Assembly (NCBI GenBank): GCA_038231275.1
Contig: JBBRLQ010000002.1
Coordinates: 192,001-256,000 of the forward strand
Direction of reading: 5' to 3'
Length of the DNA: 64,000 nucleotides
Source: Polyangiales bacterium
GTDB taxonomy: Bacteria; Myxococcota_A; Polyangia; Polyangiales; Polyangiaceae
This document shows positions 29,653-34,762 of this stretch, one piece after another (position 1 is the first letter of the stretch; each line of letters begins with the position of its first letter). The translations under genes and the position numbers were made by a program. The notes under the pieces are model-generated. The model ran no database searches, was not told the origin of the DNA, and was given only the letters and a program-made list of their open reading frames with translations.

Positions 29653-31941
29653 TCACCGCTCGACGCGCACTGGCGTCGCGCCGGGCGGGGTGGTCACGGG
29701 GGTCGGGGCGCGAGGAGACGGGCCGCCCCAGGTCTGGACGGGCACCGGCAGCTCCAACGCGTCCTGCGGCGTGTGATCCTTCACCTCGCGCGGCGCGCGG
29801 AGCTCCTCCAGCTTTCGCTCGGCGTCGATCTTGCGCGCCGAACCGCGCATCACGTGCACGAGCCCGCGCGTGCGAGAGAAGTCCGCGGGCGGCGTCCACT
29901 TCCTGCCGCTGAAGACCACCGCGTGGTCGATCATCTCCTGCCGCTCATCCATCTTCTGCTGGAAGATGCGCCGCTTGTCCGCCTCGTCGCGCATGATGTG
30001 CGGCGTGAGCACGAGGATGAGGTTGCTCTTCTCGTTCTGATCGGTGCTGCTCCGGAAGAGGGCGCCGAGGAGCGGGATGTCGCCGAGGAGCGGCACCTTC
30101 GTCTCGGTGCGCGACAGCCGATTTCGCACGAGCCCCGCGATCACCATCGTCTCGCCGTCCTTCACCGTGAGCGTGGTCGTCGCGCTTCGTTCGACCCACG
30201 AGATCGATCCGTAGACGTCTGCCTTGTCGGGGACGCTCTGCACGTCGCTGATCGTCTCCTCGATGTCGATGCGCACCTCGTTCGAGTCGTTCATGTGCGG
30301 CGTCACCTTGATGCGCGGGCCGATCGCCTGGAGGTTGCCCGGTGATGTGCCCGCGGAAGGCAGCGTCAGGCCGCCGGCGATGATGGGGGCGGCGGGCGCA
30401 TGCGGCGTGAGCGGGATGCGCAGCTGCACCTTCAGCTCCGCCGGCGTGTTGTCGCTCGCGACGATCTGTGGCGTCGAGAGGATGTCGCTCCCGCGCGTCT
30501 GCGCCATCGCCGTGATGAACGCGCCCACCGCCGGGATCTTCGAGATCGACGAGCTCGTGCCGGTGGGGATCGCGAACGGCAGCGGAATTTCCGGCCCGCG
30601 GATGCCTAGCGCGAACGCTTGAAGATCGGTGGCGTTGGGCGTGAGGGCGGAGGTGCCCGCGCGGAAGCCGCCATAGAGGAAGCTGTCGTCGCCCTTACCG
30701 GCGGTGCTTCCGCCGTGGAACGCGAAGCCGAGATCGAGGTCGTGCTCCGCCGAGATCTCCATCACGACGGCCTCGATGTAGACCTGCCTCTTGGGCATGT
30801 CGAGGCGATCGATGACCGCCTTGACCGCCGCGAAATCGCGCGGCGACGACGTGACCAGGAGCGAATTGGTGGTCTCGTCGGCGCTGACCTTGACGCTCGA
30901 CTCGAGGATGGCGAGCTGCGCGGGCCTCGCGCCGCCGGAAATCGCTTGCGCTTGCGCCGCCCCTCCCCCGCCGCCGGCCGCGCCGAGCGCCTCGTTCAAT
31001 GGCCCCACGATCTTTTTCGCGTCGGCGTGCTGGAGGTTGACGACGTGCACCTGCCCGTCGCTCGTCACCGGGATGTCGATCTTCCGCAAGACGTCGACGA
31101 CGCGCCGATACGACGCTTCGCTCGCCACGATCGCGAGCGCGTTCGGTCGCTCGAACGCGACGAGGCGTGAGACGCGAAGCTCCCCCATCGTCGGTCCGTC
31201 GAGCTTTTTTTTCAGGTCGAAGAGCTCGGTCAGCTTCTTCTCGATGTCGGCCGACGCCGCGTAGTAGATGGGCTCCACGTAGAGGTGCTCGGCGGGGCCC
31301 GACGTGTCGACCTCTTGGACGATCTGGAGCAGGCGCCGCACGTTCGTGCCGGTGTCGGTCATGATGAGAAGGTTGCCCGGCGCGTACGTGACGATGCTGC
31401 CGTCGCGCGTCTGGAGCTTGCCGAGGATGCCGGCCACTTCGTCGGCGCCCGCGTGGGCGAGGCGATGGAGGCGCGTGACGTACCGCTCCTCGGGCGGCGC
31501 TTCGGCGACGATCGGCGTCGTCTGACGTGCCGCGTCCTGCGACTCGACGATCTTGTAGAGGCCTCCTTCGGGGATGACCGTGAGGCCGTTGCCCTGGAGC
31601 ATCGACAGGAACGCGCGGTACGCCTCTTCGACGGTGACCTTCTGCGTCGCGAAGACCGTGGCCTTCAGCGTGCGAGGCTTCGCGGTGGCGACGACGAAGC
31701 GCTTACCCGTGAGCTCGCCGATCGTCTTCACCAGATCCGGGAGATCGGCATCCTCGACCTGGAACGAGACGAGCTCGCCGGGAGACTTCGGCTTCACGGG
31801 CGCCTTGTCGGCCGGCTTCTCGGGCGGTTTGTCGGCCGGCTTGTCGGGCGTCGTCGCGGCGGTGTCGGCGTGCGCGCTGCGACCGGCGCCGAGCGCGCAT
31901 GCGAGGAGAGAACTAAAAAAGAAGAAGCTCGCGCGTCGCAT
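29653..31941 (-). CDS. gspD: Type II secretion system secretin
   Basis: N-domains, ADETTNSLLV, QVYIEAVVME, ILSTPQI, KVPLLGDIPLLGALFR. Confidence 0.93.
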   Translation of the reverse strand: MRRASFFFFSSLLACALGAGRSAHADTAATTPDKPADKPPEKPADKAPVKPKSPGELVSFQVEDADLPDLVKTIGELTGKRFVVATAKPRTLKATVFATQKVTVEEAYRAFLSMLQGNGLTVIPEGGLYKIVESQDAARQTTPIVAEAPPEERYVTRLHRLAHAGADEVAGILGKLQTRDGSIVTYAPGNLLIMTDTGTNVRRLLQIVQEVDTSGPAEHLYVEPIYYAASADIEKKLTELFDLKKKLDGPTMGELRVSRLVAFERPNALAIVASEASYRRVVDVLRKIDIPVTSDGQVHVVNLQHADAKKIVGPLNEALGAAGGGGGAAQAQAISGGARPAQLAILESSVKVSADETTNSLLVTSSPRDFAAVKAVIDRLDMPKRQVYIEAVVMEISAEHDLDLGFAFHGGSTAGKGDDSFLYGGFRAGTSALTPNATDLQAFALGIRGPEIPLPFAIPTGTSSSISKIPAVGAFITAMAQTRGSDILSTPQIVASDNTPAELKVQLRIPLTPHAPAAPIIAGGLTLPSAGTSPGNLQAIGPRIKVTPHMNDSNEVRIDIEETISDVQSVPDKADVYGSISWVERSATTTLTVKDGETMVIAGLVRNRLSRTETKVPLLGDIPLLGALFRSSTDQNEKSNLILVLTPHIMRDEADKRRIFQQKMDERQEMIDHAVVFSGRKWTPPADFSRTRGLVHVMRGSARKIDAERKLEELRAPREVKDHTPQDALELPVPVQTWGGPSPRAPTPVTTPPGATPVRVER

Positions 31942-31994: not shown

Positions 31995-33071
31995 TCACTT
32001 TGGCATCACGAGATCGCGCGTGACGTCGGCCACGCGTGGCGCGCCGCAGAGCGCCATCGCCTCGTCGATCTCCGCGCGGAGCATCGCGAGGACGCGGCGT
32101 ACTCCGCCCTCGCCGCCGAGCGCGAGGCCCCACAGCACCGGCCGCCCCAAGAGGACCGCGCGCGCGCCGAGCGCGAGCGCTTTCATCACGTCGGTCCCGC
32201 GCCGCACGCCGCCGTCGAGGAGGATCTCGCCGCGCCCGTCGACCGCATCCGCCACGCGCGCGAGGACATCGATGGTGGCGGGCGCGGTGTCGAGCTGCCT
32301 CCCGCCGTGGTTCGAGACGACCACGCCCGCCGCGCCGCTCGCGATCGCGGTCCGCGCGTCGTCGGCGCGCACGATCCCTTTCACGAGGATCGGCAGCTTC
32401 GTGAGCTTCGCGAGCCACGCGAGCGCGTCCCAGGTCAGGCTCGGATCCAGCTTCGTCGCGACGTAGCTCGAGAGACCGGAGCCCTCGAGCGGCACCGCGA
32501 CCTCCCCGTGCCCTTCCGCAACCAGGTTCTCGACGCGCATCCCGGCGGGGAGCCCGAACCGATTCCGCACGTCGCGCTCGCGCCGCCCGAAGACGGGGGC
32601 GTCCACAGTCAGGACCAGCGCGCGGCAGCCTGCCGCCTCGACGCGACGCACGAGCGCCTCGGTCGCGCCGCGATCTTTGTACACGTAGAGCTGGAACCAG
32701 AGCGGGCCGGTCGCCGCGGCCGCGACGTCCTCCACGCGCGTCGTCGACAGCGACGACAAGATCATCGTGGTCCCCTCGGCCCCCGCGGCGCGCACCGTCG
32801 CGAGCTCTCCTTCGGCGTGCGCCAGCTTGTGGAAAGCCGTCGGCGCGACGAGGACCGGCATCGCGATCTTCGTCCCGAGCACCGTCGTGGATGTGTCGCG
32901 CCGACTCACGTCGACCATGACGCGGTAGTGGAGCGCGATCCGCGAGAACGCCGCGCGGTTCTCGCGCAAGGTCACCTCGTCGTGCGCGCCGCTCGCGTAG
33001 TAGTCGAACGCCATCCCGTCGAGGCGCGCGCGGGCGAGCGCCTCGAGCTCGAGCAGGTTCACGAAGTCCAT
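31995..33071 (-). CDS. FMN-dependent alpha-hydroxy acid oxidase (glycolate/lactate oxidase family)
   Basis: DYYASGA.DE, WFQLY, VSNHGGRQLD, DGGVRRGTD, GRPVLW. Confidence 0.95.
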   Translation of the reverse strand: MDFVNLLELEALARARLDGMAFDYYASGAHDEVTLRENRAAFSRIALHYRVMVDVSRRDTSTTVLGTKIAMPVLVAPTAFHKLAHAEGELATVRAAGAEGTTMILSSLSTTRVEDVAAAATGPLWFQLYVYKDRGATEALVRRVEAAGCRALVLTVDAPVFGRRERDVRNRFGLPAGMRVENLVAEGHGEVAVPLEGSGLSSYVATKLDPSLTWDALAWLAKLTKLPILVKGIVRADDARTAIASGAAGVVVSNHGGRQLDTAPATIDVLARVADAVDGRGEILLDGGVRRGTDVMKALALGARAVLLGRPVLWGLALGGEGGVRRVLAMLRAEIDEAMALCGAPRVADVTRDLVMPK

Positions 33072-33199
33072 CGGGAGACTGCAAATGCACCGGCGCAGCC
33101 CCGATGACGAGAAGAAAGGTGGATCAAGCTCCCCCCTTCGCGTGGCCCGCCGACGCCGCGGCCCGCACGCAACGGCCTGTAACGCCTACAATTCACTAC

Positions 33200-33215
33200 G
33201 GGTACACACGTTGCA
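33200..33215 (+). promoter_or_regulatory. sigma54 -24/-12 promoter motif
   Basis: GGGTACACACGTTGCA, 13 nt before ATG 33229. Confidence 0.6.
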
Positions 33216-33228
33216 CTTCCCCGTCTCC

Positions 33229-33666
33229 ATGAGAATTGCCGTCGGTCTCCTCTCTCTCGTCGTCGCGTGCGGAAGTACAGGCTCGGAATCGGTCGGGGGT
33301 GATGGCGAGGACGTCGCCCCACTGCTCGCCGGGCGCGTGGTCCCCGAAGCCGAAATCGCGCGCGATCTCCGCGCGGCGGGTTTCGCCGAGAGCGAGATCC
33401 CACAGATGGTCTGCGCCGCGAAGTACGAGTCGAGCTTCTACGCGCAAGCGCTCCACAAGAATCACAACGGATCGATCGACTACGGCCTCTTCCAGATCAA
33501 CGACGACCTCTGGGCCCACAGCTGCGGCCTCACCGTGCAGGCCCTCTACGATCCGGCGAAGAACGCGAAGTGCGCGCGCAAGGTCTACGATTCCGGGGGT
33601 ATCCGATCCTGGTACGCGTACCGAAAACACCAGACGGAGTGCGACAGGTACACGGTCAACGAATGA
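33229..33666 (+). CDS. Lipoprotein with c-type (GH22-like) lysozyme domain
   Basis: VVAC lipobox. MVCAAKYESSF...NHNGSIDYGLFQIND...CARKV...GIRSWYAY. Confidence 0.85.
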   Translation: MRIAVGLLSLVVACGSTGSESVGGDGEDVAPLLAGRVVPEAEIARDLRAAGFAESEIPQMVCAAKYESSFYAQALHKNHNGSIDYGLFQINDDLWAHSCGLTVQALYDPAKNAKCARKVYDSGGIRSWYAYRKHQTECDRYTVNE

Positions 33667-33669
33667 CAG

Positions 33670-33687
33670 TGGGGGCCGTTTCCCCCA
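33670..33687 (+). terminator. Hairpin after the lysozyme gene (no clear U-tract)
   Basis: TGGGGG-CCGTTT-CCCCCA. Confidence 0.4.
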
Positions 33688-33791
33688 GATGTGAATGGGA
33701 TTTCACACCTTGAGGACCGTTCACATCATTGATACCGACACCCCTCAACCGAATACGCGCGTAACCATTTAGTTTCATTTCGTTTTATCTT

Positions 33792-33807
33792 CGGCATCGG
33801 TCCTGCT
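33792..33807 (+). promoter_or_regulatory. sigma54 -24/-12 promoter motif with upstream AT-rich tract
   Basis: CGGCATCGGTCCTGCT. AT-rich 33766-33791. Palindrome TGTGAA-N6-TTCACA at 33690-33707. Confidence 0.6.
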
Positions 33808-33823
33808 GTAGCTAGCTCTCGTC

Positions 33824-34762
33824 ATGAGCACGCTGAAGCAGAGTCGAGGGGTCACGGGTCGCCTGGTCCAGGTCGCGGTGGGAATCGTGGTCGGCGCCGC
33901 CAGCCTTCTTGTTGGTTCGGAGGCCATCGCGGCTTCGTGCCCGCGCGACATGGCGCTCGTCAACGGCAGCTGCGTCGACAAGTTCGAAGGCTCGCTCGTC
34001 GAGGTGCTCGAGGACGGCACCGAGGTCCCCTTCAGCCCCTACCAGACGCCGGCCGGACACAAGGTTCGCGCGGTCTCGCAGGAGGGCGTCGCCCCGCAGG
34101 CGCACATCTCGATGGTCGACGCGCAGAAGGCCTGCAAGACGAGCGGCAAGCGCCTCTGCCACGCGAAGGAGTGGAAGAGCGCGTGCAAGGGTCCGGACAA
34201 GACGCGCTACCCGTACGGCGACACGCGCGAGGCGAACGCTTGCGTCGACACTGATCGCACGTCGCCCGTCCTCAAGAAGTACATGGGCGAGCACACGGCG
34301 CGCACGATGAACGATCCGACGCTGAACCAGGAGCCGAACACGCTCGAGCCGACCGGCGCGGCGGCGGCGTGCACGAACTCGTACGGCGTCCACGACATGG
34401 TCGGCAACATCCACGAGTGGACCGACGACGCGGCGTTCCGCGGCGGCTACTACCTCGACACCAAGCTGAACGGCGAGGGCTGTGACTACGTCACGACCGC
34501 GCACAGCGCGATCTACTACGACTACTCGACCGGCTTTCGCTGCTGCGCGGACGAGGGCTCGCTGCCCGACGACGCGGAGCCCGCACCCGACGCGACGCCG
34601 CGAGAGGCGCCCAGCGCGCCGATCGACCCGAGCACCACGCGCCCTGCCTTGCCGATGGGTGACGATGGCCCGACGCGCACGTGGGCGGCGCCGGCGGCGG
34701 CGACGATCAACGGCGGCGAGCGTCGTCGTGGTCGTGGCCGCGGTCGCGACGCGACGGCCTGA
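33824..34762 (+). CDS. Exported FGE-sulfatase/SUMF1-like domain protein
   Basis: CPRDMALV, GKRLC..EW..AC, YPYG, YGVHDMVGNIHEW, GFRCC. Confidence 0.85.
   Translation: MSTLKQSRGVTGRLVQVAVGIVVGAASLLVGSEAIAASCPRDMALVNGSCVDKFEGSLVEVLEDGTEVPFSPYQTPAGHKVRAVSQEGVAPQAHISMVDAQKACKTSGKRLCHAKEWKSACKGPDKTRYPYGDTREANACVDTDRTSPVLKKYMGEHTARTMNDPTLNQEPNTLEPTGAAAACTNSYGVHDMVGNIHEWTDDAAFRGGYYLDTKLNGEGCDYVTTAHSAIYYDYSTGFRCCADEGSLPDDAEPAPDATPREAPSAPIDPSTTRPALPMGDDGPTRTWAAPAAATINGGERRRGRGRGRDATA

Follow-up and report, generated by a model that had tools for sequence, protein, structure and literature searches.

Whether a bacterium can carry a true relative of hen egg-white lysozyme is the question raised by a short gene at positions 33229 to 33666 of a 64,000-nucleotide stretch of Polyangiales bacterium DNA (assembly GCA_038231275.1, contig JBBRLQ010000002.1, positions 192,001 to 256,000 of the forward strand; this whole stretch is referred to here as the window). 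Hen-type (c-type) lysozymes, which belong to glycoside hydrolase family 22 (GH22), are among the best-studied enzymes and are treated as animal enzymes; to our knowledge, their evolutionary origin is still open. The encoding organism is a soil or sediment myxobacterium, and the gene specifies a small protein with a predicted membrane anchor, here called the window protein. A preliminary description, made from the letters of the DNA alone, had claimed a bacterial lipoprotein resembling c-type lysozyme. This core claim is borne out by profile, by matches in the PDB, by predicted fold, and by the catalytic residues: the window protein is a GH22 homolog, and the likeness is far above chance. It adds a member to a known family, the bacterial branch of which has already been noticed and never studied.

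The top Pfam match is PF00062, the c-type lysozyme family, with 63.4 bits (E value, 3e-17; cutoff, 27) over residues 41 to 136 and profile positions 6 to 114 of 123. SLT_3 (PF18896, "Lysozyme like domain") comes second with 42.7 bits, also above its cutoff of 27, and SLT (PF01464) matches marginally, at 22.5 bits versus a cutoff of 21.3, which is 41 bits under PF00062; the profile comparison proposed in the preliminary description thus favors GH22 over both. A scan of the window protein with NCBIfam profiles gave nothing useful. By phmmer, 283 distinct PDB sequences match at an E value of ≤1, and the best 60 of the 283 are all c-type lysozymes, led by those of rainbow trout (1.8e-15), silkworm (6.8e-14), guinea fowl (4.1e-13), housefly (2.4e-12), and hen (2.5e-11). 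An AlphaFold2 model built from 28 homologs has a mean predicted local distance difference test score (pLDDT) of 87, with block means of 92 to 99 from residue 31 onward. All of the top 50 Foldseek matches of the model in the PDB are c-type lysozymes, with target-normalized TM-scores of at most 0.79 and 25 to 33% identity. VIA, a fold aligner independent of Foldseek, compared the model with 48,161 chain representatives and ranked silkworm lysozyme (1gd6) first, with a Z score of 15.9 and a root mean square deviation of 1.9 Å over 109 residues at 33% identity, aligning model residues 36 to 145 with 1gd6 residues 1 to 118. The Z scores of other structures were 12.1 for alpha-lactalbumin, 10.6 for Bdellovibrio DslA, 9.4 for Escherichia coli MltE, 9.2 for MltC, 9.1 for EtgA, and 8.7 for Slt70. 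By these Z scores, the predicted fold, for which a comparison with hen lysozyme had likewise been suggested, is c-type, well ahead of those of the lytic transglycosylases (Z of ≤9.4).

The animal c-type lysozymes of hen (132l), trout (1bb6), and silkworm have in common with the window protein the Pfam family, the fold, and the Glu/Asp pair. In a HMMER alignment to rainbow trout lysozyme, the numbering of which is taken to coincide with that of the hen enzyme, Glu67 and Asp84 fall on Glu35 and Asp52, as the preliminary description had proposed, and Trp128 falls on Trp108. The window protein reads KYES and DYGLFQIN where the trout enzyme reads KWES and DYGIFQIN. The same description had put four cysteines of the mature protein near hen C30, C76, C94, and C115; three of these positions are exact, and Cys138 is offset by three residues. 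Hen lysozyme has disulfides 6-127, 30-115, 64-80, and 76-94. Two of them are common to the animal enzymes and, if its cysteines pair in the animal pattern, the window protein, whereas Cys6-Cys127 and Cys64-Cys80 are missing, and a 9-residue gap follows the QIN motif, where the animal loop holds Cys64. The animal enzymes are freely secreted, whereas the window protein is predicted to be lipid anchored. Its N terminus, MRIAVGLLSLVVA-C14, fits the lipoprotein consensus [LVI][ASTVI][GAS]C, so that the lipobox read in the preliminary description stands.

The family at large conserves these features. By word-index search, 28 of 82 candidates proved to be family proteins, and 27 of the 28 match PF00062. 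In an alignment of the homologs (A1), Glu67 is invariant, and Asp84, Cys14, the four mature cysteines, and Trp128 are each conserved in at least 90%. When 1.84 billion representative proteins were searched with a profile, 5,522 matched at an E value of ≤0.001, 855 at ≤1e-10, and 165 at ≤1e-30; the best 150 include approximately 38 insect multidomain proteins and approximately 10 giant-virus-like ones, the top ranks being insect multidomain lysozymes whose scores are summed over 4 to 10 domains. Among 154 full-length domains of the bacterial-type family, Glu67, Ser68, Trp128, Cys62, and Cys115 are kept in all 154, Cys99 in 151, Asp84 and Cys138 in 149, and Gln89 and Asn91 each in 149 to 154. 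The domain has exactly four cysteines in 114 of 131 family representatives. A lipobox-like N terminus, scored by a crude ad hoc rule, is present in 77 of 122 representatives; the remaining N termini include truncated starts, forms with a transmembrane segment and a basic linker, and those of the giant-virus type. The window protein has Gly at position +2; of the 77 lipobox-bearing relatives, 63 have Gly, Ser, or Ala there. Under the lipoprotein sorting rules, such residues would mean no retention signal, from which we infer an outer membrane or surface location.

The secondary match to SLT_3 does not count against GH22, since it is also seen in many genuine insect lysozymes. Nine other bacterial proteins with a DYGLFQIN-type motif, namely, Nitrospirae FlgJ-like, candidate-phylum, and actinobacterial proteins, all have SLT_3 or SLT as their top-scoring profile and reach at most 28.7 bits on PF00062. 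A hidden Markov model of the bacterial family domain gives insect lysozymes a median of 77.9 bits (maximum, 92.3) and SLT_3-type loci a median of 48.3 bits (maximum, 59.8). Two family members favor SLT_3 over PF00062, P0130 with 27.2 versus 21.9 bits and P0177 with 50.0 versus 38.0 bits. Because the balance between SLT_3 and PF00062 varies among members, the bacterial family is placed at the GH22 edge of a continuum. With Asp84 present, the window protein departs from the single-Glu pattern of the SLT/GH23 family 1 transglycosylases; lytic transglycosylases are described, in the portion of the DslA study available, as being without a second catalytic acid at the lysozyme Asp position (PMC7511926).

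Two trees bear on the relation to animal lysozymes. Animals were represented in both by arthropod c-type lysozymes and two mammalian SPACA3 proteins, the only vertebrate rows, and vertebrate lysozyme C was left out. In the first tree (87 rows, 129 columns, LG+C20), the 43 animal rows form one clade (100/99) with no bacterial row inside it. In the second tree (81 rows, 124 columns; support given as ultrafast bootstrap/Shimodaira-Hasegawa-like approximate likelihood ratio test [SH-aLRT]), the 30 animal rows group at 100/96, again without a bacterial row, the giant-virus group at 99/88, and the SLT_3-type outgroup at 98/98. The 98/98 branch parts the bacterial family, the giant-virus group, and the animals from seven SLT_3-type bacterial proteins. 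The phylogeny proposed in the preliminary description thus groups the window protein with GH22 and outside the animal clade. Judged from the aligned sequences, there is firm reason to take GH22 overall (bacteria, giant viruses, and animals) as distinct from the SLT_3-type proteins and, equally, to regard the window protein as no recent import from an animal.

The bacterial backbone is poorly supported in the second tree, with bootstrap values of 15 to 22. Rooted on the SLT_3-type outgroup, the animals and giant viruses branch from within the bacterial rows. The bacterial family is recovered as a lone group in 0 of 200 bootstrap trees, and forcing it together costs 0.15 log-likelihood units (approximately unbiased test, P = 0.518). 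The bacterial family as one clade is thus neither supported nor rejected, and a sister and a nested position of the animals both fit.

The nearest nonbacterial relatives are lysozymes encoded on IMG/VR contigs labeled GVMAG, which we take to mean giant-virus metagenome-assembled genome (MAG); they are 38 to 49% identical to the window protein and score 78 to 84 bits on PF00062, within a span of 66 to 84 bits for the GVMAG-encoded lysozymes as a whole. These contigs (L063 to L084 and L090) encode close copies of a group of 10-cysteine proteins (P0114, P0120, P0121, P0139, P0153, P0157, P0162, P0163, P0168, and P0171) that have no lipobox. The ESM Atlas puts one of the 10-cysteine proteins in a 117-member cluster, all viral, with Nucleocytoviricota as the commonest phylum. 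In the sequences examined, SLT_3-type proteins have no cysteines (e.g., L038 and L032), the bacterial proteins have 4, and the giant-virus group has 10; animal lysozyme C has eight. All four canonical animal pairs appear to be represented among the 10 cysteines. The giant-virus lysozymes have the motifs AGFPES...MVC.AKYESS...DYG.FQIN in common with the window protein and differ from it in having a plain signal peptide or N-terminal domains instead of a lipobox; they group with the animals at 67/90 in the second tree. Some of them carry a fusion, either of N-terminal Cys-rich repeats or of a lipocalin domain. A literature search on giant viruses and c-type lysozyme found no relevant paper.

One scenario would derive animal c-type lysozyme from a wider GH22 lineage with its deepest diversity in predatory bacteria, among the two-disulfide lipoproteins of Polyangiales/Labilithrix and Bdellovibrionota, with giant viruses of protists holding an intermediate, fully disulfide-bonded form and the window gene lying on the bacterial stem. 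It would be a second independent case, besides that of the g-type lysozymes, of animal immunity taking over a weapon of bacterial predators. We offer it tentatively and, on balance, consider it doubtful. Transfer from a eukaryote to a bacterium is also possible.

The window genome (9.28 Mb, 164 contigs, 94% complete) holds two copies of the gene. The second, on contig 16 at 99522 to 99968 (−) (locus L002, 1468 to 1911 [−]), encodes a 147-residue lipoprotein (MKRIALALLLPLFAC...) that has a lipobox like the window protein, is 57% identical to it over the domain, and lies in an unrelated neighborhood. The two copies are sisters in the tree (99/96), and a same-genus genome (G572) likewise has both. 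In all, 60 loci from species-representative genomes were recovered, 24 of them close (39 to 78% identity). These 24 comprise 19 from Myxococcota, 2 from Bdellovibrionota (one Silvanigrellales and one Pseudobdellovibrionaceae), and 3 labeled just Proteobacteria or Pseudomonadota; the 19 are from Labilithrix (7, including two in Labilithrix luteola DSM 27648), Myxococcales (6), and Polyangiales or Polyangiaceae (6). PF00062 was found in 3 of 401 genomes sampled from the window's phylum, all in its own taxonomic family, and in 0 of 14 control genomes. At an E value of ≤1e-10, the family profile matched 10 of the 301 genomes sampled from the window's order, among them 8 of 90 other genomes of its taxonomic family; in the phylum to which the Pseudobdellovibrionaceae genome belongs, 24 of 131 genomes had a match to the profile. 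Within its own lineage, the gene is thus rare and of patchy occurrence, and Bdellovibrionota carry it more often. Lysing other bacteria is how the carrier lineages live. Two relatives have another family member adjoining the first (L008, 6809 to 7321 [+]; L023, 5175 to 5876 [−]), in tandem in a Labilithrix MAG and divergently in a Polyangiaceae MAG. One assembly, titled Phocaeicola faecalis, includes a 334-base contig (L044) whose encoded fragment shares 97% identity with the lysozyme of Spodoptera exigua; this is almost certainly contamination of a bacterial assembly by insect DNA and no bacterial GH22.

The preliminary description had assumed that c-type lysozymes are known mainly from animals. 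The presence of GH22 in a bacterium is real, and it is less unheard-of than was assumed: in the available part of a 2019 review, "GHF-22, PF00062" is listed for Labilithrix, Frankia, and Enterococcus, hen-type lysozyme is called "almost uniquely found" in eukaryotes, and the function of the Labilithrix homologs "still awaits" investigation (Vermassen et al., PMC6403190). The Labilithrix PF00062 homologs are the same bacterial family, the L. luteola DSM 27648 copies being 48 to 50% identical to the window protein. Coverage in that part of the review consists of a table entry and two sentences, with no anatomy, lipoprotein signal, distribution, or phylogeny (PMC6403190). No characterized bacterial GH22 enzyme was found in the literature searched, supplements lying outside its scope, and this review was the only mention. 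The g-type (GH23) lysozymes likewise represent an "animal" lysozyme class that occurs in predatory myxobacteria; they are common to animals and Myxococcaceae, and horizontal transfer has been proposed (PMC11576321 and PMC12855814). That case differs from the window protein in GH family and in lineages (Myxococcus, Corallococcus, and others), and no bacterial c-type homolog is reported in the available parts of those two articles.

A bacterial parallel of known function is DslA (Bd0314, 6ta9), the third-best fold match, which is 20% identical to the window protein. According to the available part of its description, DslA is a predator lipoprotein of the lysozyme superfamily that acts on the prey wall; it is nearest to GH23, has its second acid, Glu154, on strand beta-1, requires deacetylated peptidoglycan with Tyr in its specificity, and has Ser166 at the position of human lysozyme Asp53 (Harding et al. 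2020, PMC7511926). The window protein instead keeps the beta-2 Asp of the c-type lysozymes. The same source mentions Bd1411, an early-expressed, "more distal" lysozyme homolog, the deletion of which lengthens prey entry time (PMC7511926). Bd1411 might be a member of the window protein's family, and the DslA homologs in Supplementary Fig. 13 of that article might overlap this family. A reverse transcription-PCR primer for bd1411 matched 0 of 5 genomes at ≤2 mismatches and 0 of 131 genomes at ≤1 mismatch.

The window protein would be exported, and, as the lipobox suggests, its signal peptide would be cleaved before Cys14 and Cys14 would be lipidated. The mature protein would then have 131 residues, consisting of a 17-residue acidic tether and a compact GH22 domain, and would probably form two disulfides, Cys62-Cys138 and Cys99-Cys115, in the periplasm. 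Glu67, as the acid, and Asp84 would hydrolyze the N-acetylmuramic acid (MurNAc)-beta-1,4-N-acetylglucosamine bond of peptidoglycan in the manner of hen lysozyme; hydrolysis is the likeliest chemistry because these residues occupy the hen Glu35 and Asp52 positions. The target would be mainly other bacteria, in predation or competition, perhaps with the enzyme on the cell surface or on vesicles. We lean somewhat toward an accessory, membrane-tethered wall-degrading enzyme that is directed at other cells and is not part of core housekeeping, because the family is rare, patchy, duplicated in the window genome, and commoner in Bdellovibrionota and because relatives carry added M23 or Cys-rich domains and standard SLT enzymes coexist with it. 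Several points weigh against such a role. An outer membrane lipoprotein with a lysozyme-type domain also fits housekeeping transglycosylases such as MltE. An Asp beside the Glu would not by itself prove hydrolysis; EtgA, the structure of which in the VIA comparison is a D60N mutant, is presumably a transglycosylase-like enzyme with such an Asp. Leu94 stands where the trout enzyme has Tyr and the hen enzyme presumably Trp62, and the loop beyond it is 9 residues shorter than in the trout enzyme. The lysozyme domain is near neutral (isoelectric point [pI], 6.5), unlike the cationic animal lysozymes. An all-against-all comparison of open reading frames (ORFs) around 26 loci found no conserved neighbor or immunity gene beyond the lysozyme gene itself. 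Profiles of the lysozyme inhibitors MliC (PF09864) and Ivy (PF08816), which matched in 3 and 1 of 14 control genomes, respectively, found nothing in the 94%-complete window genome, and this leaves the sparing of the cell's own wall without an explanation.

If the enzyme instead served its own cell, it would be an outer membrane lipoprotein that trims the peptidoglycan in growth, in division, or in the insertion of an envelope machine. MltE/EmtA and MltC of E. coli (GH23) are likewise lipoproteins with a single lysozyme-superfamily catalytic domain and a Glu-Ser motif; they are just 13 to 16% identical to the window protein, and their fold matches are far weaker than those of c-type lysozymes. 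The proximity of a GspD-type secretin gene, at a distance of 1.3 kb, and the lack of an immunity gene would suit this role. However, the secretin gene is on the opposite strand, past an unrelated dehydrogenase gene, and no neighbor is conserved among the 26 loci; a gene present in 8 of 90 other genomes of its taxonomic family and 10 of 301 of its order is too patchy for a core function, and six ordinary SLT domain genes occur elsewhere in the genome. A self-directed role thus seems unlikely, and an other-directed enzyme is still what we favor. MltE and MltC yield anhydro products, and a GH22-like fold that works by lytic transglycosylase chemistry and leaves 1,6-anhydroMurNAc ends would be in keeping with the SLT_3 and, narrowly, SLT cutoffs that the window protein passes, with the preference of P0130 and P0177 for SLT_3, and with the phage SLT clusters among its ESM Atlas neighbors. 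Nevertheless, PF00062 is the best profile, the SLT_3 match does not discriminate, Asp84 is conserved in the family at large, and the fold stands at a Z score of 15.9 to a c-type lysozyme versus at most 9.4 to transglycosylases, so that we regard this chemistry as quite improbable.

The two other explanations that were weighed are more remote still. A noncatalytic lysozyme-like protein that binds or regulates, as alpha-lactalbumin and SPACA3 do, would agree with alpha-lactalbumin as the second-best fold match (Z, 12.1) and with the existence of such members in PF00062, where the first domains of insect multidomain proteins read QH.S at the ES motif; it is very improbable, given that Glu67, Ser68, Asp84, Gln89, Asn91, and Trp128 are kept in 149 to 154 of 154 domains. 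An artifact of assembly or binning, in which a eukaryotic or giant-virus gene was misplaced in a bacterial MAG, might be suspected from the nearest nonbacterial relatives lying on giant-virus contigs and from the insect fragment contaminating another bacterial assembly. This is scarcely credible: the gene lies inside a 661,646-base contig and has a bacterial lipobox, its GC content at third codon positions (GC3; 0.82 versus 0.88 to 0.93 in adjoining genes) is slightly low yet clearly host adapted, a second copy sits on another contig, synteny with a same-genus MAG is full, and the complete chromosome of L. luteola has two copies. The second copy, the L. luteola copies, the synteny, and GC3 effectively refute the artifact.

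The conserved family thus includes a stripped-down form of GH22 with two disulfides, one shorter loop, and a predicted lipid anchor. If the proposed activity is true, this would represent a naturally occurring minimal GH22 scaffold, produced in the bacterial periplasm and useful for enzyme engineering, as well as a candidate predatory weapon parallel to Bdellovibrio DslA and a data set for testing the exchange of c-type lysozymes between animals and predatory bacteria, as for the g-type. Speculatively, it may also give environmental bacteria a reason, other than animals, for keeping c-type lysozyme inhibitors. The interest would be greater if the family is the bacterial root, or a bacterial offshoot, of the animal c-type lysozymes.

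The features of the gene and its neighbors are collected in Table 1.

Table 1. Coordinates of the lysozyme-like gene, its parts, and neighboring genes in the window
Feature	Position (nt)	Strand	Basis or remark
GspD-type secretin	29653-31941	−	Neighbor; 762 residues
Flavin mononucleotide (FMN)-dependent dehydrogenase	31995-33071	−	Neighbor
Whole coding sequence, lipoprotein precursor with GH22 lysozyme domain	33229-33666	+	145 codons and TGA
Signal peptide, residues 1-13 (MRIAVGLLSLVVA), one basic residue and then a 10-residue hydrophobic core	33229-33267	+	Sequence; homologs start at the same point
Lipobox V11-V12-A13-C14, Gly at +2	33259-33270	+	Pattern read from sequence; Cys14 column conserved
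Cys14 codon, predicted lipid attachment site	33268-33270	+	Lipobox pattern
Acidic Gly/Ser-rich tether, residues 15-31 (17 residues, pI 4.05)	33271-33321	+	pLDDT <50 for residues 15-27
GH22 (c-type lysozyme) catalytic domain, residues 32-141 (approximately 110 residues)	33322-33651	+	PF00062 at residues 41-136; fold match
Cys62 (hen Cys30), probable partner of Cys138	33412-33414	+	Trout alignment; pairing from the animal pattern
Glu67 codon GAG (hen Glu35), general acid in "ES" motif	33427-33429	+	Trout 1bb6 alignment
Asp84 codon GAC (hen Asp52)	33478-33480	+	Trout 1bb6 alignment
Cys99 (hen Cys76), probable partner of Cys115	33523-33525	+	Trout alignment; pairing from the animal pattern
Cys115 (hen Cys94), probable partner of Cys99	33571-33573	+	Trout alignment; pairing from the animal pattern
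Cys138, three residues past the hen Cys115 position, probable partner of Cys62	33640-33642	+	Trout alignment
FGE-sulfatase domain protein	33824-34762	+	Neighbor

Both peptide strings quoted in the preliminary description occur letter for letter in the 145-residue translation of the coding sequence. The public gene model (P0002) has 193 residues and starts at 33085, which is 48 codons before the signal peptide. The extension from 33085 to 33228 is not conserved, and its start was probably miscalled. The start at 33229 is preferred because homologs begin at the signal peptide, because the frame in the syntenic locus L003 opens just 11 codons ahead of the matching Met, and because 33085 sits 14 bases from the start of the divergent FMN-dependent dehydrogenase gene. 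A scan of positions 32900 to 34000 for promoters and terminators found no promoter-like site upstream of the lysozyme gene and no terminator; the single promoter-like site lies downstream of the gene, at 33702 to 33729. A GC-rich hairpin right after the stop codon was dropped because its predicted folding does not surpass that of shuffled sequence (z, −0.51). No RNA run carrying the gene was listed, and the sole full match was a DNA run, possibly the one from which the assembly was made.

Further neighbors include genes for a glutathione S-transferase, a helix-turn-helix/WYL regulator, and an AI-2E transporter. Among the 26 loci compared, the gene order of the window recurs only in the same-genus MAG (L003). 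Apparent clusters of neighbors were shadow ORFs of high-GC DNA or the synteny of close Labilithrix relatives. The secretin matches its counterpart in L003 only over residues 53 to 117 and 593 to 740, which could reflect sequence divergence, a deletion, or a gap in the assembled MAG.

Some relatives have larger architectures than the window protein. In approximately 35 members, the lysozyme domain is followed by a C-terminal module of approximately 54 residues with four cysteines, which is missing from the window protein. Its pattern is GGCWSGTL...CV.S...W.QC..G.WYRG...GP.G.C (P0017, residues 177 to 230; L017 ORF, residues 197 to 250), and it occurs twice in P0044. No Pfam family covers this module in the members scanned; it may be a wall-binding module. 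P0151 (548 residues) contains the lysozyme domain, the Cys-rich module, and approximately 280 more residues without a Pfam match, and P0177 has a Peptidase_M23 domain joined to the lysozyme domain. Outside the family, Nitrospirae MAG loci L028 to L031 and L033 encode a C-terminal lysozyme-like domain with STDYGLFQIND that scores best on SLT or SLT_3. The flagellar Rod-binding domain PF10135 is N-terminal in the two of these that were scanned, L029 and L033, and the loci resemble a FlgJ-like architecture with an unusual glycosidase module.

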